Positions 6,913 through 30,410 of a DNA stretch of 32,000 nt are shown piece after piece. Location: assembly GCF_000039765.1 (NCBI RefSeq), contig NC_004460.2:60001-92000 (forward strand), given 5' to 3'. The position numbers and the translations under genes were made by a program. The notes under the pieces are model-generated. The model was given only the letters and a program-made list of their open reading frames with translations, made no database searches and was not told the DNA's origin. This DNA is from Vibrio vulnificus CMCP6 (GTDB lineage Bacteria; Pseudomonadota; Gammaproteobacteria; Enterobacterales; Vibrionaceae). Numbering within the stretch: position 1 is the first letter of the stretch; each line of letters starts with the position of its first letter.

Positions 6913-7142
6913 TTCATTGTTAGTAACTCTAAGTAAAAAATAGTTACATAGTTGTTTGCTTTTATGCCAATCTAGGTGTGACTTCGCTTGGAATAATTAG
7001 CTCACCGAATGATTCGCTTGTTATATCGTCTGAAAATTTTAAGGATGTGATTTTCAGCCAAAAATAGCGAAATAGAGTTGTTTATTGGAATAGCGTGTGG
7101 TCTTATTGATACATTAATAAGTAAGGTTTGATAAGTTGAAGT

Positions 7143-7358
7143 ATGATTGGTAGAAAATACGCCCATTTTTCGGTTAAACATCCTTGGATACACCGTTTTA
7201 ACCTACTAGTAGCGCTCATGATCTTTGCGGTAAGCTGCTACGAGCTACTAGCCAATGAAAACTTATGGTACGGCCTAGGGACACTATTCACATTTGTTTT
7301 GTTGCTTGTATTTGCCTCTGCATCTGAGTTTAAACGAAAATACCTTTCTCATGAGTAA
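7143..7358 (+). CDS. Hypothetical small membrane protein (71 aa, two predicted TM helices)
   Basis: Two hydrophobic stretches, FNLLVALMIFAVSCYELL and GLGTLFTFVLLLVFASA. A convincing rho-independent terminator follows 16 nt downstream. No family recognised and the RBS is weak. Confidence 0.35.
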   Translation: MIGRKYAHFSVKHPWIHRFNLLVALMIFAVSCYELLANENLWYGLGTLFTFVLLLVFASASEFKRKYLSHE

Positions 7359-7373
7359 ATGAGAGAGCAATTG

Positions 7374-7401
7374 AAAAGGCACTAACGTAGGTGCCTTTTT
7401 T
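7374..7401 (+). terminator. Rho-independent terminator (aaaaggcac-taacgtag-gtgcctttttt)
   Basis: A GC-containing stem (ggcac/gtgcc, extended by A/T pairs) is followed by a run of six T. Confidence 0.6.
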
Positions 7402-7790
7402 GTCTTTCCTTGAGCGATACTTGCCCCCTTTCTCCTGCATTCTAGTTTTCGTTTGTTCTTTGACATTTATCTTGTGTATCGCACCATCCATGATGGGCGG
7501 TTTGAAGCGCGCACGCTATCACTCTCCATGGTTAGTTGCATATAAGGAAACAGGAATCATTCAGCGAATGAAGAAAACTTCAGCGAATTAAAAAACTGCG
7601 ACTATTATTGAAGATAACGGGCATTTTTTGCTGGCAAACGTGGTGAATCACAGTTTTTGTTTAAATATTTGAACTATTGAGTTGTTTGCCGATTTACAAA
7701 ACTGAGCCAAGCAGTTAAAAAGAAAACAATCGATAAAAAACCGTAGCCTGGCAACAGGTGGTTTATTAACCATGAAAAGTATTTGAAATC

Positions 7791-8774
7791 ATGAGCTATT
7801 CAAGTAGTACAATTTTGACCGAAAGTGGAACCAATGAACTTGAGATTATCGAGTTTCATTTGGAGAAGGTTTTGCCTAACGGTGAGACGAAAACTTGCTA
7901 TTACGGCATCAACGTTGCGAAAGTGCGTGAAGTTATCCAAGTTCCAGAAACAACGGATTACCCAAATGCTCAGCCGCATATGATTGGTGTGTTTTCTTCG
8001 CGTGATGTGTTAACGCCACTCGTCGATCTGGCTGGCTGGTTAGGCGTACCTACTCGTCCTGCGGTTGAGCGCAAGTTCGTTATTGTTACTGATTTCAACA
8101 AAATGACGAACGGCTTTTTAATCGACAGTATCAGTCGCATTCACCGTATTTCATGGAATGATGTTGAGTCGCCGAGTCAGTTTTTGGAAGCGGGCGAACA
8201 AGATTGCGTGGTTGCGGTTGTACGAAAAGATGGCAATCTGATCATGATCCTCGATTTCGAGAAAATCATCGCTGACATCAACCCAGAACTCAGCATGGAG
8301 AAATACGACGTTAAAACAGACCGAAGTGTCGATCTTAACCAGCGTATGGTCACCAAGCGTAATGCCAAAACCATTATGGTGGTGGACGACTCTGCGTTCA
8401 TTCGCTCTCTGATCCAAGAGACACTGACCTCGGCAGGCTACAATATCATCGCCTGTAAAGATGGCGGTGAAGCGCACGATAAGTTAATGAATCTGATTGA
8501 AGTCGCGCGTGAAGAGAATTTGCCGTTGAGTGAACTGATTGATGCGGTGGTGACCGACGTAGAAATGCCTCGTATGGACGGTATGCACTTAGTGAAACGT
8601 CTACGAGACAGTGAAGCCTACAAGACTCTACCTATTGTGATGTTTTCTTCATTAATGAGTGAAGACAACCGTGCGAAAGCATTGGCCTTGGGTGCCAATG
8701 ACACCATCACCAAACCAGAAATTGGCCGCATGGTGTCTTTGATGGATAAGTACGTGTTCAACATTGAATCGTAA
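7791..8774 (+). CDS. cheV: Chemotaxis coupling protein CheV (CheW-like domain + receiver domain)
   Basis: 327 aa. The N-terminal CheW-like region starts NELEIIEFHL...YGINVAKVREV. The C-terminal REC has IMVVDDS, VVTDVEMPRMDG and ITKP. Confidence 0.9.
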   Translation: MSYSSSTILTESGTNELEIIEFHLEKVLPNGETKTCYYGINVAKVREVIQVPETTDYPNAQPHMIGVFSSRDVLTPLVDLAGWLGVPTRPAVERKFVIVTDFNKMTNGFLIDSISRIHRISWNDVESPSQFLEAGEQDCVVAVVRKDGNLIMILDFEKIIADINPELSMEKYDVKTDRSVDLNQRMVTKRNAKTIMVVDDSAFIRSLIQETLTSAGYNIIACKDGGEAHDKLMNLIEVAREENLPLSELIDAVVTDVEMPRMDGMHLVKRLRDSEAYKTLPIVMFSSLMSEDNRAKALALGANDTITKPEIGRMVSLMDKYVFNIES

Positions 8775-12000: not shown

Positions 12001-13560
12001 TCAAATGCGTCTAAATTGAGAAACCAGCTTACCTTGGCTATCTAGGGATTTCACCAACGCGTTACATTGGTGACAGGTGTCACTTGAGAGCACGTTGGTG
12101 GCCGAGCAAGCATCACTGATGGATTGCACGCTAGAGCTCATGTCTTCCGTGACTCGAGCCATCTCTTCAACTGCTGTAGCAATTTGGTTGTTTCGGTCAG
12201 AAATGTCCGTTACTTGGTCGAGAAGTATTTGCAGTTTTTGCCCAGAGGAGTCGGCTGAAGAGACACATTGTTCAGCCAAGTGCGTCCCTTCACTCATGGA
12301 GGAGACCGCTTTCTGCGTGCTGCTTTGGATCAATCCAATCACTTTCTGGATTTCTTCGGTAGATTCATGGCTGCGCTGCGCAAGCTTTCTCACTTCGTCG
12401 GCGACGACTGCAAAGCCTCGCCCTTGTTCACCAGCTCGAGCGGCTTCGATGGCCGCATTCAAGGCGAGTAGGTTGGTTTGCTCAGCCACACCCTGAATGA
12501 TGATCAGCACATCACCAATGGTTTTGCCGTGTTGCGCGAGTTGGCTCACCACGTCTGAAGTTTCATCCAATTGTCCTGCCAGTAGTTTTATCGCCTTGAC
12601 AGTGTCTTGCACGGTGATCATCCCTTCACTCGCGGCGGAGTGAGCTTGATCTGTCGCATCAGAGGCACTTTGCGCGTTTTGCGCGATCTCATTGGCGGTG
12701 GAGTGCATTTCGGTAATGGCAGCAGCCACTTGTTCTGTCTCGTGGGTTTGACCTTTGAGGTTGTGCGAAGCTTTGTCGCTGTTTGAAGATGAATTTCTTG
12801 CAGAGTCAATTAGTTGTTGATTGGAGTCCTGAATGCGTCCCACCACCGCATTGAGCTCAGACTGGCGCATCTTAAGTGCCAATTTTATCTCGGAAATATC
12901 GTCTACTTTCTTGTTGTATACCAGTTCCATCAATGGGTTATCGAACACTTTACGCGCTTCTGCTGAAAGCGATTCTAATCGACGGGTGGAGCTGTAGCTG
13001 ATCGCCACAGACAGTAAGAGAAGTGACCAAATACCTAAGCCGGGAAGCGCGGTATTGAACGCCAAGCTTAAGAGAGTCGCGCCAAAAAACAGTATTGATT
13101 GCCTTTGCCATAGTCGAGTGCGAGGAAGCTTGAGTTGAATAGGCGTCTTGCCAGCACGAATTTGTGCGTATAGCCGAGTCGCATTTTCGACATTTTCTCG
13201 GCTTGGACACAACCGAACAGATTGATATTCGACAACTTTGCCAGAGCTGTCCTTAATGGGTGAGGCAAACGCATCAACCCAATAATGGTCGCCATTTTTA
13301 CAACGGTTTTTGACCATTCCCATCCAAGATTTACCCGCTTTCAAATGTTCCCATAAATCTTTAAACGCTTCGGGTGGCATGTCAGGGTGTCGCACGATGT
13401 TGTGTGGCTGCCCCATCAACTCCTCTAACGTATAACCAGCGACATCACAAAACTCTTTGCTCGCATACGTGATATGACTGGAAGGAGAGGTAACAGAGAG
13501 AAGGTTGTAGTGAGGAGGGTAAGTCACCTCTTTCTGCGTCACGGGTTGATTGATTCGCAT
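12001..13560 (-). CDS. aer: Aer-like aerotaxis/redox methyl-accepting chemotaxis protein (N-terminal PAS, membrane hairpin, HAMP, MCP signalling domain)
   Basis: The N-terminal [46 protein letters not shown] closely matches the FAD-binding PAS of E. coli Aer as I recall it. A central hydrophobic hairpin ([34 protein letters not shown]) follows. The C-terminus has the highly conserved MCP hairpin [35 protein letters not shown]. Confidence 0.85.
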
Positions 13561-13766
13561 AAATTGCCTCTTGATTCATATCCCTGAATGAAAAAATAAG
13601 CCACGACTTTTACTTTAGCTTTAACTTAAATAACAATCATTATTATTGCTCTTTTATAAGGTTTAGTTCAGTTTGGAAAAAGTACAAACCTTCATATTAC
13701 CCATTGCTTTTATTGGCATTGGTCTATTATTGAAAAATACTGCATACAAAAGGTGGAGAAGCCGAT

Positions 13767-14687
13767 ATGTCACTGGGAAGTGTATTAAATAAAGTCGAAG
13801 ATGCAGATGAACTTCTGAAACTTCATGATCTTACTGAAGCGGATTTAGCGCTGATTCGTAAATTTGGTCAAATAATGGTGCCCAAACTCGATGAGTACGT
13901 TAAGCACTTTTACGATTGGCTCAGAAACACCCCTGAATATGAGCAGTATTTCGGTGATGCGCAAAAGCTACAACGAGTTCAAGATTCGCAAGTTCGCTAC
14001 TGGAAGACCTTCTTTGATGCCAGGATAGATTCGGCCTACCTCAAGGAAAGACGGGATGTTGGAGAGATTCATGCCCGTGTCGGCTTACCATTGCCAACTT
14101 ATTTTGCCGGTATGAACATCTCGATGGTGATATTTACCAAAAGAATGTACGACGGCAGTTTATACAGTGACGAATACAGCTCATTGGTGACGGCATTTAC
14201 CAAATTGTTGCATTTGGATACCACTATAGTAGTAGATACCTATTCGCGTTTAATTAATAAACGCATTTCTGAACAGAGCGAAGCGTTATTAGCGATGTCG
14301 ACACCGGTGACGATGATTTGGCAGGATATTTTGATGTTGCCAATCGTCGGCATTATCGATTCAAAACGCGCTCAAGATATTATGTCCGCAGTACTTAATA
14401 AGATTTCGGAGAATAGAGCCAAAATTTTTATTATGGATATTTCTGGTGTTGCGGTCGTCGATACGGCGGTAGCCAACCACTTTATTAAAATCACGAAAGC
14501 AACAAAATTAATGGGTTGCGATTGTCTGGTCTCGGGCGTTTCGCCTTCTATCGCGCGTACTATGGTCCAACTGGGCATCAATGTTGGTGAGGTTCGTACC
14601 AATGCCACCTTGCGAGATGCGCTCGAAAATGCATTCAAAATTGTTGGGCTGACCGTGAGCGGTTTGAAACACTTTCCTCATGAGTAG
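13767..14687 (+). CDS. rsbR: RsbR-like stressosome sensor: N-terminal globin-coupled-sensor (protoglobin) domain + C-terminal STAS domain
   Basis: 306 aa. The N-terminal half has the globin-coupled-sensor signature around a proximal His, RRDVGEIHARVGLPLPTYF (His102, nt 14070-14072). The C-terminal half is an RsbR-type STAS: STPVTMIWQDILMLPIVGIIDSKRAQ...IMDISGVAVVDTAVANHFI. RBS aaggtggag. The stop overlaps the rsbS start region. Confidence 0.85.
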   Translation: MSLGSVLNKVEDADELLKLHDLTEADLALIRKFGQIMVPKLDEYVKHFYDWLRNTPEYEQYFGDAQKLQRVQDSQVRYWKTFFDARIDSAYLKERRDVGEIHARVGLPLPTYFAGMNISMVIFTKRMYDGSLYSDEYSSLVTAFTKLLHLDTTIVVDTYSRLINKRISEQSEALLAMSTPVTMIWQDILMLPIVGIIDSKRAQDIMSAVLNKISENRAKIFIMDISGVAVVDTAVANHFIKITKATKLMGCDCLVSGVSPSIARTMVQLGINVGEVRTNATLRDALENAFKIVGLTVSGLKHFPHE

Positions 14688-14689
14688 TG

Positions 14690-15043
14690 ATGACGATGCA
14701 AAGTGCAATTTCGATTTCCAAACTACAAGATGTGTTGATCGCGTCTGTTCAAGTTGATCTCACCGAAAGTACGCTGAGAGATTTCAGCCTTGATCTTTTA
14801 GATGCGGTGAAATCGACCAGAGCAAAAGGGGTCATGATAGAGCTATCGGGAGTAAAAACGCTGGATGGAGAAAGTATGCACCGCCTACTCGATGTCGTGA
14901 AAACCGTTGAAGTGATGGGGCGTCGCTGCTTACTCGTTGGACTTCGACCGGGGGTTGTGATTGGCCTTATGGACATCGGTATTGATCTTGCCTCAACTCT
15001 GTGTGTCGCCGATTTAGAGCAGGGGTTTCTTTATTTGGAATGA
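14690..15043 (+). CDS. rsbS: RsbS-like single-STAS stressosome scaffold protein
   Basis: About 117 aa. It aligns without gaps, from memory, to B. subtilis RsbS: ISISKLQDVLIASVQVDL...GVMIELSGVKTLDGES...LVGLRPGVVIGLMDIGI...DLEQG. Possible starts are GTG 14687, ATG 14690 and ATG 14696. Confidence 0.85.
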   Translation: MTMQSAISISKLQDVLIASVQVDLTESTLRDFSLDLLDAVKSTRAKGVMIELSGVKTLDGESMHRLLDVVKTVEVMGRRCLLVGLRPGVVIGLMDIGIDLASTLCVADLEQGFLYLE

Positions 15044-15068
15044 TGATGGCTAGTTATGGAAACGCAAT

Positions 15069-15479
15069 ATGGTAGAAGTGGTCAGAAGCCTACAAACCTA
15101 TTACATCGCATCAGAAACCGACGTGATGAGTGCGGTAATGGGATGTTACAACGTAGCGCGTGAATTGGGCTTTGACGAAGGCCGAGTCAGTGAAATCTCC
15201 ACCTCGGTATCAGAGTTAGCAATGAACGTGGTGAAGTACGCAGAGTTTGGTCGGGTAGAGCTTTCCGAATTGACAAACGGCAAGGCAATTGGCTTGAGAA
15301 TGACCGTACGAGATAAAGGGCCGGGGATCCACAACATTGAAGATGCGCTCAGTGATCACTACAGCACAGGGCACTCATTAGGGCTTGGTTTGCCAGGAGT
15401 GAAACGCATGATGGATAGCTTTGAATTGACAACTGAGTTAGAGAAAGGCACCACGATTGTTGCTGAGAAGTGGGTGTGA
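15069..15479 (+). CDS. rsbT: RsbT-like serine/threonine kinase (GHKL ATPase, anti-sigma-factor-kinase type)
   Basis: 136 aa, close to RsbT size. N-box ELAMNVVKYA, G1 DKGPGI, G2 GLGLPGVKR. It lies immediately after the two STAS genes. Confidence 0.85.
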   Translation: MVEVVRSLQTYYIASETDVMSAVMGCYNVARELGFDEGRVSEISTSVSELAMNVVKYAEFGRVELSELTNGKAIGLRMTVRDKGPGIHNIEDALSDHYSTGHSLGLGLPGVKRMMDSFELTTELEKGTTIVAEKWV

Positions 15480-15481
15480 CG

Positions 15482-16066
15482 ATGGGATTTGACTTTGTTA
15501 CTGTCAATGATCCTTGCAGCGGCGAATATGTCTCTGGCGATGGGGCTGTCATTCACGAATTTGAGCATGGGCTCTTGGTTGTCATTATTGATGTTCTAGG
15601 CCATGGTGAAAAAGCAGCGAAAACCGCAAGGGCAATGGAGTCATACATCAAAGAGCTCTGCTCCAGTGACATCGTGTGGTTGATGGAAAAAGTGCACGAA
15701 CATTTTTTAACTTCTCAAGGTGCGGCAATGACAATGGTTTACTTCGATCGGTTAACGCACCAGCTCAAAGGGGTCGCGATTGGCAACACCTTGTTACGCC
15801 GTTGCGGAGAAGAGTGGCAATCGTATCACGCACAACCAGGAGTGGTCGGAGAATTGTTGCCAACACTAAAACCATTTCACGATGTCTTTAAAGATGGTGA
15901 TACGTTTCTCTTTACCACCGATGGCATTAAGGAAAACATCGATCCAGAATCCTGCCGAAGCTTTCAATACCATTCCCTTGGTTCGTTTACGCATTTCTTA
16001 ACCACCAATTTTGGTAAGTCCTACGATGATTCAACGGTAATTGCAGTTAGGTACTACTATGACTGA
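15482..16066 (+). CDS. rsbX: RsbX-like PP2C/SpoIIE-family serine phosphatase (stressosome feedback phosphatase)
   Basis: 194 aa. SGDGAVIHEFEHGLLVVIIDVLGHGEKAA is the characteristic (S/C)GD...DGLGHG metal-binding pattern, and TTDGI is a late Asp motif. The ATG at 15482 is 2 nt after the rsbT stop. The 3' end overlaps the kinase start (ATGACTGA). Confidence 0.75.
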   Translation: MGFDFVTVNDPCSGEYVSGDGAVIHEFEHGLLVVIIDVLGHGEKAAKTARAMESYIKELCSSDIVWLMEKVHEHFLTSQGAAMTMVYFDRLTHQLKGVAIGNTLLRRCGEEWQSYHAQPGVVGELLPTLKPFHDVFKDGDTFLFTTDGIKENIDPESCRSFQYHSLGSFTHFLTTNFGKSYDDSTVIAVRYYYD

Positions 16067-19000
16067 ATCGATCTCTTTAACCTTGACCAACAATGAAAGT
16101 AGCCGTTTTTTGATTCGTCAGCGATTACTATCCATCCTGCAAGCCTTTGGCTATGATGCCTGTCGGTGTGACATTCATATGTTACGTCTCGGTGAGTTTG
16201 TGCGTATTACGCTCGCAGATATTCAACGTTTTACTTTGAGCTTTGAGCTAGATGACGACAGCTTGAAAGTCATTCTTGCCAGCTCAGAGCTCGATCCGCA
16301 AACTTGCTCATTCCCTGCTTGTGTTCATACATTTCAACGTGAGAAGGCCATCGGCGTCTCTATTCCCTCATTAATTCCACTGTCTGATGAGATCCTAAAC
16401 CAACTGACACAGTTTTTGGCGAAGCCGAGCCGCGATGAGTTGATGTCGGAATTGAAAGCGAAAAACCAAGAATTAGCTGTGCATCAAGCCGGGCTAGAGA
16501 AAGAAATTGAGCTGCGTACCGCAGACCTTAAAGCCAGCGAAGAGCTGTCGCGCACGATTATTGATGGCGCACCGTCAAGCGTCGCTATTGTCGATGAATC
16601 CCTGTCTATTTCACTGTGGAACAGTACCGCGCAAAATGTTTATGGTTACAGCAGCGAAGAGGCGACAGGAGAGAACATTTTAACGTTGCTCAATATGAGT
16701 TTGCCTGATGCACTTTCGCATGTGCTTTCTGCCCCTTTGGCATTGCAAAATCAGCCTGATGTTGAGGGCGGGTTCTTCGAAGTGGAAACGACAACGAAAG
16801 AAGGGCACATGGTGCCGATCGATTTGGGGGTCTCCATCTTTGAGCTCAATGGGGCGTGCCATGCGGCACTGTTTCTGCGCGATGTCACCTCTAGAAAGGC
16901 GGTGGAAAAAGAACTCAATGACGCCAAAGCGAAAGCGGAAGAGGCGGTTGAAGTGAAATCGATGTTCTTGGCCAACATGAGCCATGAAATACGTACACCG
17001 ATGAACGCCATCATCGGAATGTCGCACTTAGCGTTAAAAACCGATCTTACCCCCAAGCAGCATGATTATGTCTCCAAAATTCACAGTTCAGCGACGCTCT
17101 TACTTGGCATCATCAATGACATTCTCGACTTCAGTAAAATTGAAGCGGGTAAGTTAAGCATCGAAACAACGGAATTCTATCTCGACGACGTGTTTCATAA
17201 CGTTTCGATGGTGACAGGACAGAAAGCATTTGAGAAAGGGTTAGAACTGATCTTTGACTTACCACGGGAGACGCCTCGATGTTTGCTCGGCGATCCGCTG
17301 CGTTTGGGGCAAATCATCATCAACTTAGTCAACAACTCGGTTAAGTTTACCGAGAAAGGTGAAATCACAGTCTCTGTACATCACATTAGAAATGTTGAAG
17401 ATTTGGTGGAACTTGAATTTCGTATTTCGGATACCGGCATCGGTATGACGGACAAACAGATGAAAAGCCTCTTTACTGCCTTTACTCAAGCCGATGGCAG
17501 TACCACGCGAAAATATGGTGGGACGGGCTTAGGCCTCTCAATTTGCCGCCGACTAGTCGAGTTAATGGGCGGGCAAATTCGAGTCGAAAGTGAAGCGGGC
17601 AAAGGCAGCCATTTCATTTTCAATGTGCTGGTGAAAGCCGATCCAGCCAACAGCTCGGCACCAAGCATTGTGCCTCAGTCTCTGGAAAAAATACGCATTC
17701 TTGTGGTGGATGATAACGAGCATGCACTTGAAATTATGCAAGAGATGCTCAGTACTTTGCCCGGCAAAGTGGCGCTTGCCAACTCAGGTCAACAAGCGGT
17801 GGATTGCATACGGAAAGCATCGGAACAGCGTGAAAAGTTTGATTTGATTTTTATGGATTGGAACATGCCAGAAATGGACGGCATAGAAACCAGCCGTTTG
17901 ATTCGAGAATCCTTCGCCAGCGAGTATCAACCGCAAATCGTTATTGTGACGGCCTATGACAAAGAAGACGTACTGGACGCAACCAATGATCTCGATATCG
18001 CGGGTTTTCTCTCTAAGCCGGTGGGGCAATCTTACCTTTTTGATCTGCTGGTTGAGTTGTTTGGTCGTGATAGAAATCCAACCACGCAGATTCGTAAGAA
18101 AGAGCTTCCCACTCATGACAGCAAAAATGATCTCAAAGGGCTGAAAGTCCTGCTCACGGAAGACAATGAAATCAATCAACAGATTGCTGTTGAGCTGATG
18201 GAAGGCAATGGTTTGCTGGTCACTGTGGCCAATAATGGCCAAGAAGCACTCGAACATTTAGAAGCCATGGAAAAAGGCGAGTCTCACTTTGATATCGTTT
18301 TCATGGACTTACAAATGCCCGTTATGGATGGTTATGAAGCTAGCCATCGAATTCGCGCTAACTCAAGTTACGATACCATTCCTCTTATCGCGATGACGGC
18401 CCATGCCATGGTAGAAGAGCGCGAACGTTGTTTAAACTTAGGGATGAATGATCATATTTCAAAACCGATTGACCCTGAGATATTGTTCAACACCATCCGG
18501 AAATGGTGTCCACGAACGCTAAACGAAAAAGATGAGTCGCCTGTCGATGTCGAACAATCGCAAACTCAACAGCTTGATTCATCCATCGAATCTGCTGCCA
18601 CGCCTAAGTCGACAGAGAGAGCGGCAGCAGAGAAGCGGACACTAGAGACGTTGGAATCACTCGATTACAAGAATGGACTACTCAGAGTAGCGGGTAATCA
18701 AACGCTTTATCGCCGGCTCTTGTCACAGCTCATGGATAAAGAGATCTCCGCACCAGAAAGGCTCACCATTGCGCTGGATAAGCAAGACACTGAGCAAGCC
18801 ATTATCATTGCTCACTCACTGAAAGGTTCGGCCTCCAATTTAGGCGCGATCCGATTGTCGGATATTGCTTCACGCTTGGAAATGGCGATACAACATGGCA
18901 AAGAAAGAGCGGAAATCGATAAGCTGAACAAGGAACTGGATGGATATCTAGAGCACTTTTTTCAGGATCTGGCGTTAGCATTAGGCAGACCCAAGCCAAG

Positions 19001-19277
19001 TAGCGATAAGCGACTGGAATTAAAAGATGAAGAGCTGATGATTATCCACACCCTAGATAGCCTGTTGGACAGTTTAGACGCTTATGCGATCGAGTTTCTT
19101 GACGAGCACTACGTGCTACTCAATACTTTACTAAAGTCTGAGGATTTTGAAGCGTGCTGCCGTTGTGTGAATGATTGTGATTTTGAGTCAGCGAGTAAAT
19201 CACTGAGAAAGGCTGTGAGCATCTATCCTTTAGATCTTGGGAAGCTTTCGGGAGAGAAAAATGGAAGGGAATCGTGA
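16059..19277 (+). CDS. Cytoplasmic hybrid sensor histidine kinase: unknown N-domain, coiled coil, PAS, HisKA, HATPase_c, REC, REC, HPt
   Basis: H-box FLANMSHEIRTPMN (His at nt 16983-16985). N-box IINLVNNSVKFT, G1 DTGIGM, G2 GGTGLGLSI. REC1 VVDDN...FMDWNMPEMDG...SKP. REC2 LTEDN...FMDLQMPVMDG...SKP. HPt IAHSLKGSASNLGA. No TM segment seen. I chose the start at ATG 16059 (MTESISL). Confidence 0.9.
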   Translation: MTESISLTLTNNESSRFLIRQRLLSILQAFGYDACRCDIHMLRLGEFVRITLADIQRFTLSFELDDDSLKVILASSELDPQTCSFPACVHTFQREKAIGVSIPSLIPLSDEILNQLTQFLAKPSRDELMSELKAKNQELAVHQAGLEKEIELRTADLKASEELSRTIIDGAPSSVAIVDESLSISLWNSTAQNVYGYSSEEATGENILTLLNMSLPDALSHVLSAPLALQNQPDVEGGFFEVETTTKEGHMVPIDLGVSIFELNGACHAALFLRDVTSRKAVEKELNDAKAKAEEAVEVKSMFLANMSHEIRTPMNAIIGMSHLALKTDLTPKQHDYVSKIHSSATLLLGIINDILDFSKIEAGKLSIETTEFYLDDVFHNVSMVTGQKAFEKGLELIFDLPRETPRCLLGDPLRLGQIIINLVNNSVKFTEKGEITVSVHHIRNVEDLVELEFRISDTGIGMTDKQMKSLFTAFTQADGSTTRKYGGTGLGLSICRRLVELMGGQIRVESEAGKGSHFIFNVLVKADPANSSAPSIVPQSLEKIRILVVDDNEHALEIMQEMLSTLPGKVALANSGQQAVDCIRKASEQREKFDLIFMDWNMPEMDGIETSRLIRESFASEYQPQIVIVTAYDKEDVLDATNDLDIAGFLSKPVGQSYLFDLLVELFGRDRNPTTQIRKKELPTHDSKNDLKGLKVLLTEDNEINQQIAVELMEGNGLLVTVANNGQEALEHLEAMEKGESHFDIVFMDLQMPVMDGYEASHRIRANSSYDTIPLIAMTAHAMVEERERCLNLGMNDHISKPIDPEILFNTIRKWCPRTLNEKDESPVDVEQSQTQQLDSSIESAATPKSTERAAAEKRTLETLESLDYKNGLLRVAGNQTLYRRLLSQLMDKEISAPERLTIALDKQDTEQAIIIAHSLKGSASNLGAIRLSDIASRLEMAIQHGKERAEIDKLNKELDGYLEHFFQDLALALGRPKPSSDKRLELKDEELMIIHTLDSLLDSLDAYAIEFLDEHYVLLNTLLKSEDFEACCRCVNDCDFESASKSLRKAVSIYPLDLGKLSGEKNGRES

Positions 19278-20397
19278 CACTGTGTTGGTGGTGGATGATA
19301 ACTCTGAAAATCGTTCTCTACTTAACGGGTTGCTCAGCTCAACCTATCGAGTATTGATTGCCACCAATGGTATGCAGGCGATTTCTGCGTGCCAGTCTCA
19401 CCTGCCGGATATTGTTCTTCTCGACATCATGATGCCAGAGATGGATGGCTATGAAGTGTGTCTTCAACTCAAAGCCGATCCCAGAACAGCGCACATTCCA
19501 ATTATCTTTCTGACCGCAAAATCACAGATTGAAGATGAGCAAAAAGGTTTCGACGTCGGAGCGGTGGATTACATCTTAAAACCGATCAGCCCGCCAATTT
19601 TAATGTCTCGCGTTCGGAATCACCTTAAACTCAAACACGCGATGGAGGAGCTGGCGCAGCAAAATACTGTTCTGGAAGACAAAGTGAAGGCCAGAACTCA
19701 TGAGCTGGAATCCTTGCAAGATGCCACCATTGGTGCGATGGCCTCTTTGGCAGAAACGCGTGACAATGAAACCGGCAATCACATTCGTCGGACTCAGCAC
19801 TATATTCGTTTGTTGGGCGAGCAACTGATTCGAGAAGGGCTGTTTTTAGACCAACTCAACGAGAGCACGTTGGATGTATTGTATAAGTCTGCCCCTTTGC
19901 ATGATATCGGCAAAGTCGGCATCCCTGATGAGGTATTGCTCAAACCCGGCAAGCTCACGGACGAGGAGTTTGAGATCATGAAAAGCCATACCGAGCTTGG
20001 TAAACTCGTGATCGAAACCGTGGAAGAGTCGATTGATTTTCAATGTGATTTCTTAATGTACGCCAAAGAAATTGCCTATTCTCACCAAGAAAAGTGGGAT
20101 GGTTCTGGCTATCCACAGAAAATCAAAGGGGAGGCGATTCCGCTGAGTGCCCGTATGATGGCGATTGCCGACGTGTATGATGCGCTGATTTCTCATCGTG
20201 TCTACAAACCTGCATTTAGCCATGAAAAAGCGGTATCGATCATTTCAGAGGGCAAAGGAAGCCATTTTGACCCACGAATCGTTGATTCGTTTATGAACAT
20301 TCATGAGCAATTTAGAGATGTCGCGGCAAGATTTAGCGATGACGAGCATCACCACCAAAACGCCGCTGAAATTACCCAGAAAACCAGTGCCAGATAA
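19261..20397 (+). CDS. Response regulator with HD-GYP domain (RpfG-type; predicted c-di-GMP phosphodiesterase)
   Basis: REC: VLVVDDN, VLLDIMMPEMDG, LKP. A coiled-coil linker follows. HD-GYP: HIRRTQHY, LHDIGKVGIPD, HQEKWDGSGYP, MAIADVYDAL. The start at 19261 (MEGNRD, RBS ggagag) overlaps the kinase 3' end by 17 nt. Confidence 0.9.
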   Translation: MEGNRDTVLVVDDNSENRSLLNGLLSSTYRVLIATNGMQAISACQSHLPDIVLLDIMMPEMDGYEVCLQLKADPRTAHIPIIFLTAKSQIEDEQKGFDVGAVDYILKPISPPILMSRVRNHLKLKHAMEELAQQNTVLEDKVKARTHELESLQDATIGAMASLAETRDNETGNHIRRTQHYIRLLGEQLIREGLFLDQLNESTLDVLYKSAPLHDIGKVGIPDEVLLKPGKLTDEEFEIMKSHTELGKLVIETVEESIDFQCDFLMYAKEIAYSHQEKWDGSGYPQKIKGEAIPLSARMMAIADVYDALISHRVYKPAFSHEKAVSIISEGKGSHFDPRIVDSFMNIHEQFRDVAARFSDDEHHHQNAAEITQKTSAR

Positions 20398-20543
20398 CGT
20401 GAGTTTGTCAAAAGGAACTCATTGAATGTGATGGGTTTTGCTACTTATTTGCGCCTTGAGCAGCCATAGAATCTGCACGGTTTTGTGCTATCATGGCCAA
20501 CAATATTCCACACTCTTCTCTCATTTGTTGGCAGTGACAATTC

Positions 20544-21677
20544 ATGAAGTTCATCCATACCTCAGATTGGCATCTCGGACGCCAGTTTCACAACGTTTCA
20601 CTCCTTGATGATCAACGCGTCGTGCTCGACCAGTTAGTCAATTATATTCGAAATCATCCCGTTGATGCCGTTGTTGTTGCTGGCGATATTTTTGATCGCT
20701 CGGTGCCTCCTACTGCGGCCATCGAATTGCTCGGCAAAACGATTGATGAAATTTGTGGTGAGCTTGATACACCGATGATCCTGATTCCAGGCAACCATGA
20801 TGGTGCTGCGCGTTTGGGCTTTGGTGCCTCGCAAATGAAACCCTCAGGGCTGCATATCATTAGCCAGTTCTCACAAATGATCGAACCGGTTGTGCTTAAA
20901 AGTGAGAGGGCGGGCGAGGTGGCATTTTATGGCATGCCTTACAGCGATCCTGAACAAGTACGCGACGCATTTGGCGTGCTGGTGAGCAATTATGATGAGG
21001 CGCATCGCGTCTTGGTTGATGAAATTCGCCAGCATTTTGATCCCAAACAGCGTCAAGTGCTATTGAGCCACTGTTTTGTCGATGGGGCGCAGAGCAGTGA
21101 GTCGGAGCGTCCACTTTCCATCGGTGGATCTGACCGCGTTAGCTATGAGCATTTTTCCATTTTTGATTACGTCGCCTTAGGGCACCTGCACCAACCACAA
21201 AAGCGAGTGGAAGAACACATTCGTTATAGTGGTTCATTGATGAAATACAGTTTTTCTGAGCAGTTCCAGAAAAAAGGATTCATGTTAGTGGAGTTGGATG
21301 AAAACGGTTTTGTCTGCGCAGAGCATATTGCGCTCGATGCCCCTCATGACATGCGGGTGATTGAGGGCGAAATGAACGATATTCTCGAACAAGGTAAGCA
21401 AGATCCCAATTATCAGGACTATTTGCTTGTTCGCTTGCACGACAAACATGCCATTTTAAACCCGATGGAAAAGTTACGAGCGGTCTATCCCAATGTTCTT
21501 CATTTAGAAAAACCAGGGATGTTAATGAACGTAGAGCAAGGGTTATCGCAAGCTAAATTGGCTCGTAGCGAAGTTGACATGTTTCGTGATTTCTTTGCAC
21601 AAGCGCAGGACAACCCACTGAGCGAAACGCAAGATGCCGCGATTTGCCAGCTCATTCAACAATTGACCAAGTCTTAG
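20544..21677 (+). CDS. sbcD: Exonuclease SbcD (Mre11-like nuclease subunit)
   Basis: 377 aa. Calcineurin-like phosphoesterase motifs MKFIHTSDWHLG, VVAGDIFD, GNHD and GHLH. Confidence 0.9.
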   Translation: MKFIHTSDWHLGRQFHNVSLLDDQRVVLDQLVNYIRNHPVDAVVVAGDIFDRSVPPTAAIELLGKTIDEICGELDTPMILIPGNHDGAARLGFGASQMKPSGLHIISQFSQMIEPVVLKSERAGEVAFYGMPYSDPEQVRDAFGVLVSNYDEAHRVLVDEIRQHFDPKQRQVLLSHCFVDGAQSSESERPLSIGGSDRVSYEHFSIFDYVALGHLHQPQKRVEEHIRYSGSLMKYSFSEQFQKKGFMLVELDENGFVCAEHIALDAPHDMRVIEGEMNDILEQGKQDPNYQDYLLVRLHDKHAILNPMEKLRAVYPNVLHLEKPGMLMNVEQGLSQAKLARSEVDMFRDFFAQAQDNPLSETQDAAICQLIQQLTKS

Positions 21678-25174: not shown

Positions 25175-28100
25175 ATGTCTTTAAAAATAAAAAAAGCGAA
25201 AATCGGAATCGCTATATCAAGTTTGCTCTCCTCCATCTCACTTAATGCGACTACTTTGCCGTCTCCGGATTGGCATGAGTTTACCATGAGTGATGGATCG
25301 GTACGTGAAATGCGTTTAATGGGGAATCAAGCGTTAGCGTGGTACCAAGACCGTGAAGGCACCATTTATCTCTATCAAGGTGATACTTGGTACTACGGTA
25401 AATACGCAGAATTTGATGGTGAGGGCAGAGTGGTTTCAACCGATGTTGTTGTTACTCAAGCTTCGCAAAGTCCAGCGGCATCTAATTCATCACTTCACCC
25501 AGTAAAACCAGCTCGAATTAGCTTTGATGAAGGGTATTCATCAGACATCAACACAACGGAGCACCATGCTGTTGCTTTACGAATCCGTCAAGCAGATCAA
25601 CCTGTTACTCAACCTTTGCTTGTGGTTCAAGTCAGCTTTAATGATGAAGTGATGGTCAATGACTTTACTAACCGAATTTTTGGTCAGGATGGGCAAAGCG
25701 TTAGAGATTACTTTCTCAAAAACAGTTACAACAAGTACGTTGTTACTCCAGCACGAGAAACGCAAGGTACCGCGAATGATGGGGTGATTAACATTTCATT
25801 AGATATGGCGCATCCTGATTGTCACTCCAAAGAGGACAATACTTGTACCACTAGACAACGTGCCATTTTTACGGCGGCTTATGCCGAGCTTGATCAGTAT
25901 ATTGACCTGTCCACATATGACAGCAATGGTGATGGTTTTATCAAGCCCTCAGAACTCTCGGTGATGTTTGTGTTTGCGGGTTACGATGCTGCCGCTGGCG
26001 GTAATCGTCGACCTTACATTTGGCCTCATAAGTTTGCCCATAACAATGAAACCATCGATGGTGTCACCATCAATGCGTATTGCTTGTTTGCTGATTTTCA
26101 AGGCGACCACCAGTCAACAATGGGCGTTATTGCTCACGAACTCGGTCATTTGATGTTGGGTCTTCCAGATTTGTATTCTTATGAGCATGACGGTTCGATA
26201 GGTCATTGGGGTCTGATGGGCGGTGGTTCATGGGGCCGCAAACCTGGCGACCTTTATTCTGGCGACACGCCGGTCAATATGACAGCATGGAGCAAAGAAG
26301 CATCAGGCTTCTTGGAGCCAGATGTTTTAAACAGTAACCAAAGTTATACCGTCAACACCTCTCAAGGTGAAAGCGTCATCTATCTTGATCCTTACCTACA
26401 GAAAATGGGGCCAAGACTCTACTTGCAAAACCGCCGAAAAGTCGACTACGACAGAGCATTGCAAGGAGAAGGCCTGTTGGCGACCTCTGTGGTGATTGAC
26501 AACAAGTTCAACAGTACTGGTCCAATGCAGGTGCAAATATTCCAAGCGGACGGGCTAGATGAACTAAACGCAGGAGGCTGGAGTGACAATGGTGATGTTT
26601 TCCCAGGCAGCAGTAATGTCACCTTACTTTCTGATGACTCAACGCCTTCATTAAGGTTGAACACAGCTGGGCGCAATACCGGCATCACTATCAGTGACAT
26701 TGTCAGTACGAATCAGCATTCAACGTTGACACTGCAATTGCCGGATCAGCGTGGCAAACATGCATGGATGACCTCATTTGCACGTCAATATACGCAATAT
26801 GATCGCCGAATTAATGCACTCGGCTTTGCGGTGGATGTGCATTTTGAAAACACCTCATTAGATGGCATCCATTTTTATGCGCAGAAAAGTGATCAGACAC
26901 AGCCTATGGAATATAAGGTGACCAAATACCCTTATCAAACCAACTGGCGTGGAGATGTGACCTTTAAGGCGGAAGATGGCGTTGAAATTGCTCGTGGGCA
27001 ACTGAATTCCGATGGTGGACGGGCGATGTTCCCACAACCATTCGCACTGACACAAGAGCGTCACCTCATTGTGGTTGAGCTAACTAATGCAATTCCCGAA
27101 TTTTCAACTTCTTATTACGATGCTTATCTCAGCGATGGCATTCGCAAAGAACAGTTCTACGCCGACAATACCACGTTACAAGGTGGCCGAATGAACAGCT
27201 CGCGAGGTCGAAACTTCCCGTTTGCAGCTCTACTACAAACCCAAGTTAACCCGCTTCCTCAAGCTCTGGACGATCAATTCCAAGTTACCCAAGGCCAGAG
27301 TATACAGCTCAACTTAATGAACAATGATACCAACTTAATGCCTGGCCACAGTTTTCAGGTTGAGCTCATGACTCAGCCAAGCAAAGGCACCGTGAACGGA
27401 AAAGAGTATCAAGCTGATTTAGGAGCTGAAGGCGTCGATGAGTTCCAATATCGTTTGCGCGACAGTGAAGGAAACGTAAGTAACACAGCAAAAGTATCTG
27501 TTACTGTATTGGCGATTAACAAACCCCCGGTGATTTCGGCCAAAGTGGTTAATGACGTCGTGTACGTTGGAGGACTCGTTGAGCTGAGTGTTGACAAAGT
27601 GGAGGACGAAGATTCCAAAGCGTTTAGTTACCAATGGCAGCAAATTTCTGGTCCAAAAGTGACGCTACGTAATGGCCAACAGAAAACCAGCAGTTTTGTG
27701 GTTCCTGAAGGTGTGACAGCGAGTGATGTCATGCACTTCAAGGTCACTGTGACTGATGACGCCCAAAATGAAGTCAGCCAAAACGTAGAAGTGAAGGTGA
27801 ATAACCATCAGCCTGAAGCACAAAATGATCACGGCCAAATAAAAGCAGGGGAAGTAAACCGCTTTAGAGTGTTGGACAACGATATTGAGAAAGATGGAGA
27901 GACGCTCACTTTAACTCGGATCGTCTCTCAGCAAGGACTGGGTAAAGCGAGCCTCTCAGGAAATGAAATTGAATTCAGCGCACCAGCGACTTTCGGCAGT
28001 GAAACAAGCACAACGGTGACGTATGAGATCAAAGACCCTCAAGGACTGATGTCTCAAGCAACACTGATCATTCAGTTTGTTAAACCGAAGACTTTAGTGA

Positions 28101-29035
28101 TCGACAACATCACACTTGAGGGACGTGAAGATGAAAGTGTTATCCTCAATTTGCAGCAATTAGCAGGCAAAGGTGGAGAGGTTAAGATTGTTGAACTGCC
28201 GAAAAATGGACTGATTCACAATGGCCAATATGTACCTCAAGCGAACTTTGCTGGCAAAGATAGTTTCACGTTCCAAGTGACGAATGCCGAGGGGACAACT
28301 TCAAATATTGCAACGGTTTCAATCAATATTCTGCCGGTCAACGACTTACACACTTTTAGTGTTAAAGCCTCTAAGTTGCAAGTCAGTGCGGACGAGCGTA
28401 TTGAACTGTCGGTTGTGCAATTAAAAGACATTGATTCCAGCAACCACCAGTTCAATTGGAAACAAGTCTCTGGGCGCAAAGCGACAATACTTAATGCGGA
28501 TAAGTCGGTTGCAATCGTTGTGATTCCTTCTCAATCCGTTGGCAATGAAAAGCTTGTGTTCAGTGCAACGGTTCGTGACGAACAAGGAGAGGCGGTTACT
28601 CATAGTTTGACATTAACGGTACATGCCACGACGCCTAGTGTGAAGCAGGGCAAACTTAAGCTCAAGTTTGGTAACTCACTGAATGTGAAGCCTCTTGAAT
28701 CTGAATACAAAGGGAAGTTCCAACTGCGTATTACGCGCCCAGCAGAACATGGTGAAGTGCAAATTGTGAATCAGGAATTGATTTATCAAGCTCCGTCTCA
28801 AACAGCATTAACCATGATCGACAGATTCAACTATGAAGTTCTTTTTGATAACGGAGAGAGCAAGCAGGGATGGTTTGAAATAGAGTTGTCACCAACCAGC
28901 ACGATTTCTGGTCAAAATGATGATGCAGACAACCCACCAACAGGAGATTCAGGTGGTGAAGATGCGGGTTCTCTAGGCTTTGGATCGGCATGGCTAATGG
29001 CATTCGTTTTACTGTGGCGTAGAAGAAATAGCTAG
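25175..29035 (+). CDS. Secreted M6-family (InhA/PrtV-like) zinc metalloprotease with C-terminal Ig/cadherin-like repeat region and GlyGly-CTERM sorting tail
   Basis: Signal peptide MSLKIKKAKIGIAISSLLSSISLNA. Zinc site VIAHELGHLMLGLPDLY (HELGH at nt 26135-26149), which matches the HExxH-x-LGLPD(E/L)Y pattern of M6 peptidases. The C-terminal half has repeated beta-rich modules. It ends in ...DSGGEDAGSLGFGSAWLMAFVLLWRRRNS. Confidence 0.8.
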   Translation: MSLKIKKAKIGIAISSLLSSISLNATTLPSPDWHEFTMSDGSVREMRLMGNQALAWYQDREGTIYLYQGDTWYYGKYAEFDGEGRVVSTDVVVTQASQSPAASNSSLHPVKPARISFDEGYSSDINTTEHHAVALRIRQADQPVTQPLLVVQVSFNDEVMVNDFTNRIFGQDGQSVRDYFLKNSYNKYVVTPARETQGTANDGVINISLDMAHPDCHSKEDNTCTTRQRAIFTAAYAELDQYIDLSTYDSNGDGFIKPSELSVMFVFAGYDAAAGGNRRPYIWPHKFAHNNETIDGVTINAYCLFADFQGDHQSTMGVIAHELGHLMLGLPDLYSYEHDGSIGHWGLMGGGSWGRKPGDLYSGDTPVNMTAWSKEASGFLEPDVLNSNQSYTVNTSQGESVIYLDPYLQKMGPRLYLQNRRKVDYDRALQGEGLLATSVVIDNKFNSTGPMQVQIFQADGLDELNAGGWSDNGDVFPGSSNVTLLSDDSTPSLRLNTAGRNTGITISDIVSTNQHSTLTLQLPDQRGKHAWMTSFARQYTQYDRRINALGFAVDVHFENTSLDGIHFYAQKSDQTQPMEYKVTKYPYQTNWRGDVTFKAEDGVEIARGQLNSDGGRAMFPQPFALTQERHLIVVELTNAIPEFSTSYYDAYLSDGIRKEQFYADNTTLQGGRMNSSRGRNFPFAALLQTQVNPLPQALDDQFQVTQGQSIQLNLMNNDTNLMPGHSFQVELMTQPSKGTVNGKEYQADLGAEGVDEFQYRLRDSEGNVSNTAKVSVTVLAINKPPVISAKVVNDVVYVGGLVELSVDKVEDEDSKAFSYQWQQISGPKVTLRNGQQKTSSFVVPEGVTASDVMHFKVTVTDDAQNEVSQNVEVKVNNHQPEAQNDHGQIKAGEVNRFRVLDNDIEKDGETLTLTRIVSQQGLGKASLSGNEIEFSAPATFGSETSTTVTYEIKDPQGLMSQATLIIQFVKPKTLVIDNITLEGREDESVILNLQQLAGKGGEVKIVELPKNGLIHNGQYVPQANFAGKDSFTFQVTNAEGTTSNIATVSINILPVNDLHTFSVKASKLQVSADERIELSVVQLKDIDSSNHQFNWKQVSGRKATILNADKSVAIVVIPSQSVGNEKLVFSATVRDEQGEAVTHSLTLTVHATTPSVKQGKLKLKFGNSLNVKPLESEYKGKFQLRITRPAEHGEVQIVNQELIYQAPSQTALTMIDRFNYEVLFDNGESKQGWFEIELSPTSTISGQNDDADNPPTGDSGGEDAGSLGFGSAWLMAFVLLWRRRNS
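28946..29032 (+). other. GlyGly-CTERM-type sorting signal (predicted rhombosortase substrate motif)
   Basis: A Gly/Ser-rich motif (SGG...GSLGFGS), then a hydrophobic helix (AWLMAFVLLW), then the basic cluster RRR at the extreme C-terminus. This is the architecture known from Vibrio VesB-type GlyGly-CTERM proteins. Confidence 0.65.
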
Positions 29036-29070
29036 GAAACCAGACATTCGGCAGTTCCCACTAACAGCAA

Positions 29071-29100
29071 AAGAAGAGGTGATTCACCTCTTCTTTATTG
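29071..29100 (+). terminator. Rho-independent terminator of the protease gene
   Basis: Perfect 11-bp stem aagaagaggtg / cacctcttctt with loop att and a T-rich tail. It lies 36 nt after the stop. Confidence 0.65.
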
Positions 29101-29254
29101 TCTGTTCAAAATAAAATCAACTGTAAACTTCGGCGATAATGCATTGAAATCCTTATTGTTTGCTGCGAAATATCTTGAACATCTCATTCATGAGAAAATT
29201 TCAGCTGTCAAGTTTATTTAGGGTATGACGTGCTAACTATCAGAATGAAGTTTT

Positions 29255-30407: not shown

Positions 30408-30410
30408 CAG

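Follow-up and report, generated by a model that had tools for sequence, protein, structure and literature searches.

How a stressosome that is encoded without a sigma factor cascade drives its output is the question raised by six genes packed on the forward strand of a 32,000-nucleotide (nt) stretch of DNA, hereafter called the window, at positions 13767-20397: rsbR, rsbS, rsbT and rsbX, followed by a hybrid histidine kinase (VvD1) and a response regulator of REC-HD-GYP type (VvD2). RsbRST modules with outputs other than sigma factors were reportedly catalogued in 2005, and the link between stressosome and output is said to have been open since. The locus is that of the reference Gram-negative stressosome; its output kinase is devoid of RsbU_N, the domain to which RsbT binds elsewhere. 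The explanation that we consider the best as a whole, with a probability of about 85%, takes the locus as a globin-sensing stressosome, the phosphorelay of VvD1 and VvD2 as its output and a previously unannotated N-terminal domain of VvD1 (hereafter N-domain) as the site of coupling between the two. The open reading frames (ORFs) of the window were annotated with the curated cut-offs of Pfam and their junctions were inspected at the level of single bases.

The RsbR product is identical in 306 of 306 residues to chain B of PDB 7O0I, solved for the Vibrio vulnificus stressosome by cryo-electron microscopy, and the kinase has V. vulnificus proteins as relatives at 99% identity; the six genes therefore correspond to the published locus VV2_0073 to VV2_0078 (rsbRSTX-VvD1-VvD2), with which they share gene order and domain content. 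On this sequence evidence the region is almost certainly the stressosome locus of V. vulnificus CMCP6 or of a near-identical strain. The gene content of the window fits a vibrio chromosome (ribose transport operon, CheV, RbgA-like GTPase, Aer-like methyl-accepting chemotaxis protein or MCP, sbcDC, M6 peptidase), and a megablast search against plasmids returned trivial short matches only, with no sign of plasmid carriage. A previous annotation made from the letters of the DNA alone, hereafter the sequence-only reading, had called the module probably not new and had pointed to work on the heme-RsbR stressosomes of V. brasiliensis and V. vulnificus; it was right, and more strongly than it stated, because the very same locus has been published (PMC9237108; PMC10014275; PDB 7O0I). 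The logic it proposed, from gas or redox sensing by a heme-STAS complex via RsbT and a phosphorelay to cyclic di-GMP (c-di-GMP), is supported and coincides with the published working model, in which VvD1 and VvD2 are named as presumed stressosome output and control of c-di-GMP by Vibrio-type modules is suggested (PMC9237108). The two questions it left open, namely the route from RsbT to the kinase and the c-di-GMP end point, are also open in PMC9237108 and PMC10014275. The locus, its structure, its mutants and the c-di-GMP hypothesis are already known; what goes beyond the literature searched is the fold of the VvD1 N-domain, a variant metal-ligand motif in VvD2 (HQE) and a group of beta-proteobacterial loci without an adjacent HD-GYP gene. 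The published scheme of VvD1 begins at its PAS domain, and neither the GHKL-like N-domain nor the HQE variant is mentioned in that literature.

Pfam assigns every domain named in the sequence-only reading at or above the curated cut-offs, placing STAS, GHKL (HATPase_c_2) and SpoIIE/PP2C domains in the four small genes, a soluble PAS-HisKA-HATPase-REC-REC-Hpt chain in the kinase, and Response_reg together with HD_5/HD in the regulator, whereas NCBIfam yields no match above its curated cut-offs for any of the six proteins. The first four products thus form the proposed RsbR/S/T/X set, which has a globin as its sensor and comes without a sigma factor. RsbR (13767-14687, 306 residues) joins a protoglobin domain (residues 13-161, nt 13803-14249; 1.4e-31, 110 bits), which matches HemAT (1OR4, 6.6e-9) and other sensor globins, to a STAS domain (residues 186-285, nt 14322-14621; 1.3e-14, 54 bits). 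Its putative heme-ligating His102 is invariant in the 18 complete loci that were compared, as are Ser199 and Thr233, the published phospho-sites (PMC9237108); binding of heme and O2 by such sensor-globin RsbR proteins has been shown experimentally (PMC9237108; PMC4976288), and the pseudo-icosahedral assembly of the RsbR:RsbS core has been solved for the identical RsbR sequence (PDB 7O0I; PMC9237108). RsbS (14696-15043, 115 residues) is a single STAS domain (29 bits, above the cut-off of 22.6), with its phospho-acceptor Ser51 invariant in 18 of 18 loci. RsbT (15069-15479, 136 residues) is, like SpoIIAB and RsbW, a serine kinase of the GHKL family (HATPase_c_2, 7.9e-11, 42.5 bits), whose profile matches SpoIIAB structures at 4.5e-12; its Glu49 and Asn53 align with SpoIIAB E46 and N50, and the invariant residues E49, N53, D82xG84xG86 and G105xG107 leave the N, G1 and G2 boxes intact. 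RsbX (15482-16066, 194 residues) is a single-domain PP2C phosphatase (SpoIIE, 33.7 bits, above the cut-off of 25); NCBIfam gave no match that separates the RsbX from the RsbU subtype, and the assignment follows PMC9237108, in which the phosphatase is called RsbX-like and not RsbU-like. As the sequence-only reading had noted, neither RsbU, RsbV, RsbW and sigma-B nor any other sigma factor is found among the larger ORFs of the window, so that a cascade of the Bacillus type is not encoded with the module; the genome analysis of Heinz et al. (2022; PMC9237108) likewise lacks it.

The catalytic core of VvD1 (16551-19277; residues are counted from the ATG at 16059, and Pfam numbers, which refer to the ORF from the TTG at 16041, are higher by six) comprises PAS (residues 165-277), HisKA (300-364, His309), HATPase_c (411-523), two receivers (REC1, 545-670, Asp600; REC2, 697-813, Asp750) and Hpt (900-965, His919). 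The ATP-binding boxes are present (NLxxN at 422, DTGIG at 458, GTGLG at 488), and His309, Asp600, Asp750 and His919 are invariant in the 18 complete loci together with Asp55 of VvD2. VvD1 therefore has all the elements of a hybrid kinase for a multistep phosphorelay: the H-box histidine, the N, G1 and G2 boxes, the receiver aspartates and the Hpt histidine.

Ahead of its PAS domain, VvD1 has a stretch of about 165 residues, which contains the part of the protein that may bear on coupling. Sequence comparison does not place this stretch. The N-terminus has no match in Pfam even at E <= 10, no relevant sequence match in the PDB (phmmer, hmmsearch and profile search), and only orthologues among 1.84 billion representatives searched with phmmer; hhalign gives the N-domain a probability of 0.8% against the RsbT profile, and at the level of sequences and profiles no homology of residues 1-108 to the RsbW/SpoIIAB/RsbT kinases was found. 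Homologues were collected with full-length VvD1 as query, word-indexed queries with the N-domain or the N-domain plus PAS having returned fragments only, and 29 orthologous N-termini were aligned (alignment A1; mean column identity 39%). Its invariant columns are M1, R20, L128, L132, N136 and L139; Arg20 (nt 16116-16118) is found in 18 of 18 loci, Lys/Arg22 and Asp38 are nearly invariant, and position 46 is Glu, Asp or Gln in 18 loci. AlphaFold2 run on this alignment gives the N-domain a mean predicted local distance difference test score (pLDDT) of 87.1 and a predicted template modelling score (pTM) of 0.77, with a strand (3-10), two helices (13-29, 34-51), four further strands (57-64, 68-74, 91-94, 97-103), a helix (110-121) and a linker helix (125-139).

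When this model is compared with the PDB by Foldseek, the top 18 matches are all RsbW, UsfX or SpoIIAB (probability 0.99-1.00, E 1.6e-5 to 1e-2, template modelling score by target length 0.48-0.71), including B. subtilis RsbW (6M36, 6M37), mycobacterial UsfX (8IH8, 8JZT) and SpoIIAB (1TH8, 1L0O, 1TID, 1TIL), and the RsbW domain of Rv1364c appears lower in the same list. The N-domain of the 24%-identical Iodobacter orthologue also gives a confident AlphaFold2 model, and its top 11 matches again all belong to RsbW, UsfX or SpoIIAB. Residues 1-108 of VvD1 (nt 16059-16382) are thus predicted to have an RsbW/SpoIIAB/RsbT-like GHKL fold of degenerate type, a call which is robust for predicted structures because two targets only 24% identical to each other produce nothing but RsbW, UsfX and SpoIIAB as significant fold matches. 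RsbU_N is not what they contain: Pfam gives no match to it, and the model is of mixed alpha/beta type with a five-stranded sheet, in agreement with the published statement that VvD1 lacks this domain (PMC9237108).

The N-domain does not look like an active kinase. The position equivalent to the N-box asparagine (residue 50) is variable (I/Q/R/Y/H/A/V/K), the G1 and G2 boxes are absent and no glycine motif is conserved; with about 105 residues, the domain is some 35 shorter than RsbT or RsbW. Since the N-box asparagine, G1 and G2 are missing, ATP binding and kinase activity are presumably absent as well, and the N-domain would be at most a degenerate relative of these kinases, a pseudokinase and not an enzymatic member of the family. 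A weak hhalign register pairs VvD1 residues 21-53 with RsbT 24-56; chained to the strong alignment of RsbT with SpoIIAB, it brings Glu46 of VvD1 to the catalytic-base position and Arg20 onto, or one residue away from, Arg20 of SpoIIAB. In PMC4166321 (citing Masuda 2004 and Campbell 2002), SpoIIAB R20, T49 and E104 are described as indispensable for its contact with SpoIIAA, a STAS protein, and the SpoIIAB-SpoIIAA complex is the template on which RsbT has been docked to RsbS/RsbR in V. vulnificus (PMC9237108) and in papers on the Listeria stressosome. The possible equivalence of VvD1 Arg20 to the STAS-docking arginine of SpoIIAB, to within one residue, is a lead.

Behind the globular part, residues 109-164 (nt 16383-16550) form a helical or coiled-coil linker with the motif K-S-R-D-E-L-M-x-E-L-x-x-K-N-x-x-L-A, the best conserved stretch of the alignment, in which the helices 110-121 and 125-139 are modelled. 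A hidden Markov model (HMM) built from alignment A1 was run on 3,084 sequences, namely stop-to-stop ORFs of at least 60 residues from the studied loci and the window plus the retrieved proteins. It matches 49 of 49 stressosome-linked orthologues of VvD1 (E <= 1e-16 for the globular part) and none of 71 other hybrid kinases sharing the HisKA-HATPase-REC-Hpt core, its first noise matches being RsbT ORFs at E of about 0.3. It also matches, end to end, the N-terminus of a kinase built differently (E 1.2e-5 over profile positions 1-140, and 0.047 when only the globular part is taken). This protein comes from a metagenome-assembled genome (MAG) of Flavobacteriales (locus L029, 9986-13243), in which an RsbR made of STAS only (139 residues, no globin), RsbS and RsbT, without RsbX, are followed by the 524-residue kinase and a stand-alone receiver of 139 residues; the kinase comprises N-domain, coiled coil, PAS, HisKA and HATPase, without REC or Hpt, and carries an R-x-K motif on its first helix and the linker motif (LSEKELLLELERKNQELI) as in VvD1. 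Because the N-domain occurs on this different chassis and is absent from the 71 other hybrid kinases, the N-domain with its linker appears to travel with rsbRST and not with a kinase architecture. We consequently lean towards regarding it as the module that couples the stressosome to the kinase.

Which partner it would bind is a more delicate matter. A STAS domain is a tentative candidate and RsbT a slightly more doubtful one, while some other partner, or none, deserves as much weight as the STAS domain. Interaction between RsbT and VvD1 was not detected in a bacterial two-hybrid assay (PMC9237108), and this negative result, combined with the conserved polar patch on helices alpha1 and alpha2 of the N-domain, tips the balance slightly to the STAS side; that motility is lost in ΔRSTX and ΔD1 alike agrees with an activating input and favors neither partner. 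One may then conceive of VvD1 as a client of the stressosome, a possibility that we put forward tentatively: its pseudo-RsbT/RsbW domain would use the Arg20 face to dock on STAS domains of RsbS/RsbR as long as these are unphosphorylated. The kinase would thereby be held or regulated at the stressosome surface and, upon phosphorylation of the core by RsbT, be freed or switched. If so, RsbT would be the writer of the signal and not its messenger, and a GHKL-like domain with a coiled coil would constitute a second widespread alternative to RsbU_N for connecting effectors to stressosomes, with representatives among the Bacteroidota as well as the gamma- and beta-proteobacteria. The N-domain makes the coupling question testable, and earlier interaction screens may have tried the wrong pair.

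The same negative two-hybrid result would fit a transient contact between enzyme and substrate (PMC9237108), as proposed by Heinz et al. (2022), for whom released RsbT transiently phosphorylates a Ser/Thr of VvD1 and so switches it; on this view the N-domain would serve only as target or dimerisation element. A precedent exists in Moorella thermoacetica, where, as cited in PMC4976288, the RsbT homologue reportedly phosphorylates a diguanylate cyclase that lies downstream. However, alignment A1 contains no invariant Ser or Thr in the N-domain, VvD1 has no STAS domain, and the predicted fold of the N-domain is that of a kinase and not of a substrate, which makes this alternative improbable. The known substrates of kinases of the RsbT/RsbW/SpoIIAB type are STAS domains.

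Stronger ground exists for the broader statement that VvD1 and VvD2 are the output of the stressosome. A scan for relatives of RsbR, with one genome per species, found 29 loci. Some 18 species of Vibrio have the complete order R-S-T-X-D1-D2, as do a Psychromonadaceae MAG and Aeromonas schubertii, and such recurrence across species indicates that the arrangement is not due to chance. Synteny of the shorter order R-S-T-X-D1 extends to about 27 loci (Vibrio, Psychromonadaceae, Aeromonas, Iodobacter, Janthinobacterium and MAGs), the flanks of which differ; in the beta-proteobacterial ones (Iodobacter, Janthinobacterium and related MAGs; loci L021-L026 and L028), D1 retains its N-domain and no REC-HD-GYP gene is adjacent, and in Iodobacter (L023, 9926-15403) the flanking genes are the housekeeping ones for RnfH, a RatA-like protein and DnaB. 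Since D1 is kept where no D2 gene is adjacent, it is the kinase that accompanies the stressosome constantly, and the HD-GYP protein is a lineage-specific end point. Published expression data agree, in that rsbRSTX and D1/D2 show matching transcription kinetics in Northern blots and quantitative reverse-transcription PCR (PMC9237108; PMC10014275), RsbR, D1 and D2 accumulate together in stationary phase (PMC9237108), and expression of the cluster, as published for this sequence, is raised in stationary phase and when nutrients or iron are limiting. Motility and fleQ expression are reduced in both the ΔRSTX and the ΔD1 mutants (PMC10014275). Given the synteny within differing flanks, the matching kinetics and the overlapping mutant phenotypes, VvD1 and VvD2 are very probably the stressosome output.

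It could be countered that D1 and D2 are an independent two-component system that senses through the PAS domain and adjoins rsbRSTX for co-expression only, the real output of the stressosome lying elsewhere. VvD1 does have a PAS domain of its own, the ΔRSTX mutant keeps part of the D1-dependent phenotypes, which its authors ascribe to PAS-mediated or cross-talk activation (PMC10014275), and the two-hybrid result (PMC9237108) would be expected. Yet the rsbX stop and D1 start overlap, R-S-T-X-D1 stay together across gamma- and beta-proteobacteria in unrelated surroundings, and the N-domain, with its predicted partner-switching fold, is found only in stressosome-linked kinases, the Flavobacteriales chassis included. 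We regard an independent system as very improbable.

The end point of the relay is less straightforward. VvD2 (19261-20397, 378 residues) consists of a receiver (residues 8-118, Asp55; Response_reg, 8.2e-28) and an HD-GYP domain (145-361; HD_5, 2.1e-33; HD, 2.5e-17), the best PDB matches of which are PA4781 (4R8Z, 1.8e-61 over 217 residues) and PmGH (4MCW, 1.4e-41). It keeps seven of the eight metal ligands of PmGH type (E185, H189, H221, D222, H250, H276, H277, D305). The exception is Gln276 (nt 20086-20088), which replaces the ligand His277 of PmGH and turns HHE into HQE (SHQEKWDGSGYP), so that HHExxDGxGYP reads HQEKWDGSGYP. Present are the motifs LHDIGK, DGSGYP, HRVYK, RDNETGNH and ADVYDAL, the equivalents of D183, K225 and D308, the RxYK motif for c-di-GMP and the E-T-G signature of the eight-ligand (trinuclear) PmGH subgroup. 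HQE is found in 15 of 18 VvD2 orthologues and HHE in the other three (two of V. profundi and one of V. ruber). According to the study that defined the ligand set and residue roles of PmGH, its H277A mutant is essentially inactive (PMC4159591); hydrolysis of c-di-GMP by VvD2 can therefore not be assumed, and its enzymology is not reported in PMC9237108 or PMC10014275. The HQE substitution is a concrete reason to measure c-di-GMP hydrolysis in a motility-linked pathway of a lethal human pathogen.

From this it may be argued that VvD2 is no conventional c-di-GMP phosphodiesterase and instead binds c-di-GMP or pGpG, prefers pGpG as substrate or regulates by protein contacts. The closest solved relative, PA4781, is a poor c-di-GMP hydrolase that prefers pGpG, which counts in favor of this view. 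Besides the frequency of HQE and the inactivity of PmGH H277A (PMC4159591), so do members of the RpfG family with degenerate motifs that act through protein contacts (bioRxiv 10.1101/2021.11.05.467447). Against it stand the seven intact ligands together with D183, K225, D308, E-T-G, GYP and RxYK, and the fact that glutamine can in principle ligate a metal; moreover, the interchange of His and Gln among orthologues suggests that the two are functionally equivalent, and the fall of motility and fleQ expression in ΔD1 is what a rise in c-di-GMP would produce (PMC10014275). A non-hydrolytic or pGpG-directed VvD2 thus seems unlikely, though less so than the two alternatives discussed above.

Put together, the stressosome would work as follows. 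By homology and from the biochemistry of the V. brasiliensis proteins, O2 on the heme would keep the complex quiet; upon loss of O2, RsbT would phosphorylate Ser51 of RsbS and Thr233/Ser199 of RsbR, and RsbX would reset the system. A member of the partner-switching set, likeliest the unphosphorylated STAS domains of RsbS/RsbR or else RsbT, would bind the first part of VvD1, the coupling taking place within its initial ~165 residues, where a GHKL domain without ATP binding presents the polar patch of alpha1 and alpha2 (Arg20, Lys/Arg22, Asp38, Glu46). The coiled coil would pass the change to the PAS-kinase core, much as RsbT acts on RsbU through RsbU_N and its linker. Judging from the intact invariant residues, phosphate would then move from His309 to Asp600 or Asp750, to His919 and to Asp55 of VvD2, whose HD-GYP domain may lower c-di-GMP or pGpG and so favor motility.

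Several points weigh against this scheme. The RsbT-D1 two-hybrid assay was negative (PMC9237108), and the phenotypes of ΔRSTX and ΔD1 overlap only in part (PMC10014275). The equivalence of Arg20 is uncertain by one residue. VvD2 carries glutamine at the position of a PmGH histidine whose alanine mutant is essentially inactive, so hydrolysis is only putative, and a c-di-GMP measurement for this system is not reported in the literature searched. A single transcript of the six genes is putative; a scan of 13400-20700 for promoters and terminators gave matches at chance level only.

The components of the cassette differ strikingly in their rates of change. Median identity to the window is 92% for the RsbR STAS domain, 76% for the RsbR globin, 75% for the catalytic core of the kinase and 70% for VvD2, as opposed to 46% for RsbS, 50% for RsbT, 48% for RsbX and 23% for the VvD1 N-domain; between species, in 17 related loci, the ranges are 79-98% for the RsbR STAS domain, 24-66% for RsbS, 40-60% for RsbT, 34-59% for RsbX and 13-36% for the N-domain. 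Even RsbR and RsbS, the STAS proteins that build the core together, differ about eight-fold (mean Kimura distance 0.11 versus 0.91). A recombination mosaic specific to V. vulnificus (RsbR 82-85% versus RsbS ~47%) was considered and rejected, because the contrast is seen in every non-sister species pair, the pair V. vulnificus/V. zhanjiangensis being the sole exception; it is thus an effect of rate. The fast set (RsbS, RsbT, RsbX and the D1 N-domain) is the one whose members are expected to contact one another. A mirror-tree analysis of which component the N-domain tracks could not separate such contacts from phylogeny, all correlations (0.66-0.90) being driven by the latter and the N-domain distances being saturated.

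The cassette of V. zhanjiangensis (L001, 10001-16584) is 86-98% identical to that of the window throughout, with 86% in the D1 N-domain as compared with ~20% for other Vibrio, and it shares neither the upstream MCP gene nor the downstream sbcD. According to PMC10436020, just 44% of V. vulnificus isolates carry the stressosome locus. This near-identity and the patchy presence among isolates point to horizontal movement of the cassette and suggest that its transfer was recent.

The tight packing of the six genes is confirmed by the ORF map, and the junctions described in the sequence-only reading hold with one reservation. The rsbR stop (TAG, ending at 14687) overlaps the start of rsbS by 1 nt if the latter begins at the GTG at 14687, but not if it begins at the ATG at 14696, which leaves a gap of 8 nt and corresponds to the solved form, the 115-residue RsbS chain of PDB 7O0I; a third in-frame candidate is the ATG at 14690, and none of the three has an obvious Shine-Dalgarno sequence upstream. 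The spacing between rsbS and rsbT is 25 nt. The ATG of rsbX (15482) lies 2 nt past the rsbT stop (TGA, ending at 15479), the kinase ATG (16059) and the rsbX TGA (16064-16066) overlap by 8 nt within ATGACTGA, and the kinase (TGA ending at 19277) overlaps the regulator (ATG at 19261) by 17 nt, all as claimed. Longer ORFs are possible from upstream TTG or GTG codons (16041, 19237, 15470), but the ATG starts are those matching the orthologues. In the Aeromonas schubertii cassette (5752-12201 of L030/L031), six genes with overlaps of 4-8 nt lie between a LysR regulator and pyruvate kinase. Upstream of rsbR, the divergent intergenic region of 206 nt (13561-13766) presumably holds the promoter; it contains one sigma-70-like match (13713-13741), in a scan that is overall at chance level, and a GGAG (13755-13758) 8 nt ahead of the rsbR ATG.

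On the other side of this region, a gene on the reverse strand (12001-13560) encodes an Aer-like receptor with PAS, membrane hairpin and MCP signalling domain (PAS_3, 2.9e-22; MCPsignal, 4.2e-43). It is divergent from rsbR also in 12 other Vibrio loci (69-76% identity), and is not found beside the cassettes of V. zhanjiangensis, V. penaeicida, V. ruber, Aeromonas and the beta-proteobacteria. A putative second sensor of O2 or redox type is thus a conserved neighbor of the O2-sensing stressosome, which does not imply membership in the system. Five kilobases upstream, a CheV-type protein (CheW plus receiver, 7791-8774) is encoded in a stretch of low GC content (38.6% at 7001-8000, compared with ~46% in its surroundings); this protein may be the CheY-like one behind the suggestion of Jia et al. 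(2016; PMC4976288), who proposed aerotaxis through a CheY-like neighbor and not c-di-GMP. Further downstream, 25175-29035 encodes a secreted-type protein of 1,286 residues in which an M6 peptidase domain (immune inhibitor A) is combined with PKD and three repeats of Big_9/cadherin-like type, and the region after it (29001-32000), with a LysR-family regulator, has a GC content of 36-37%, a shift in composition that hints at a separate acquired segment.

Among known systems, the V. brasiliensis stressosome (PMC4976288; locus L006) is like that of the window in its six-gene order and in its heme-containing RsbR with O2-dependent control of RsbT; the RsbR proteins are 82% identical, whereas RsbS, RsbT and RsbX are only 46-49% and the D1 N-domains 23% identical. 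With the stressosomes of Bacillus subtilis and Listeria the locus shares the STAS core of RsbR and RsbS, the GHKL kinase RsbT, the PP2C phosphatase RsbX and the phospho-acceptor Ser/Thr residues; it differs from them in the absence of RsbU, RsbV, RsbW and sigma-B, in a globin in place of the non-heme N-terminal domain, in a single RsbR without paralogues, in the position of rsbX directly after rsbT and in its phosphorelay output. VvD2 has the REC-HD-GYP (RpfG-type) architecture of PA4781 (4R8Z) and PmGH (4MCW), but PA4781 lacks the Glu185 ligand and has GFP for GYP, whereas VvD2 has Gln for PmGH His277.

The N-domain of VvD1 resembles RsbW, SpoIIAB and UsfX in its predicted fold and may also do so in the conserved alpha1 arginine, at or next to the position of SpoIIAB Arg20, and in Glu46 at the catalytic-base position; it departs from them in its length (~105 versus ~140 residues), in the absence of the N-box Asn, G1 and G2, in its fusion to a histidine kinase and in the lack of significant sequence similarity. 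In its place within the system, it compares with the outputs linked to RsbU_N, such as B. subtilis RsbU, the diguanylate cyclase MtG of M. thermoacetica and histidine kinases with RsbU_N, which have a partner-binding N-terminal domain, as VvD1 putatively does, followed by a conserved coiled-coil linker and a dimeric effector, and are likewise encoded beside rsbRST. In those outputs RsbT binds RsbU_N and the linker, the coiled coil becomes ordered and the dimeric effector is switched on (PMC12143880); RsbU_N, however, is a four-helix bundle, whereas the N-domain of VvD1 is predicted to be of the beta-alpha-alpha-beta4 GHKL type.

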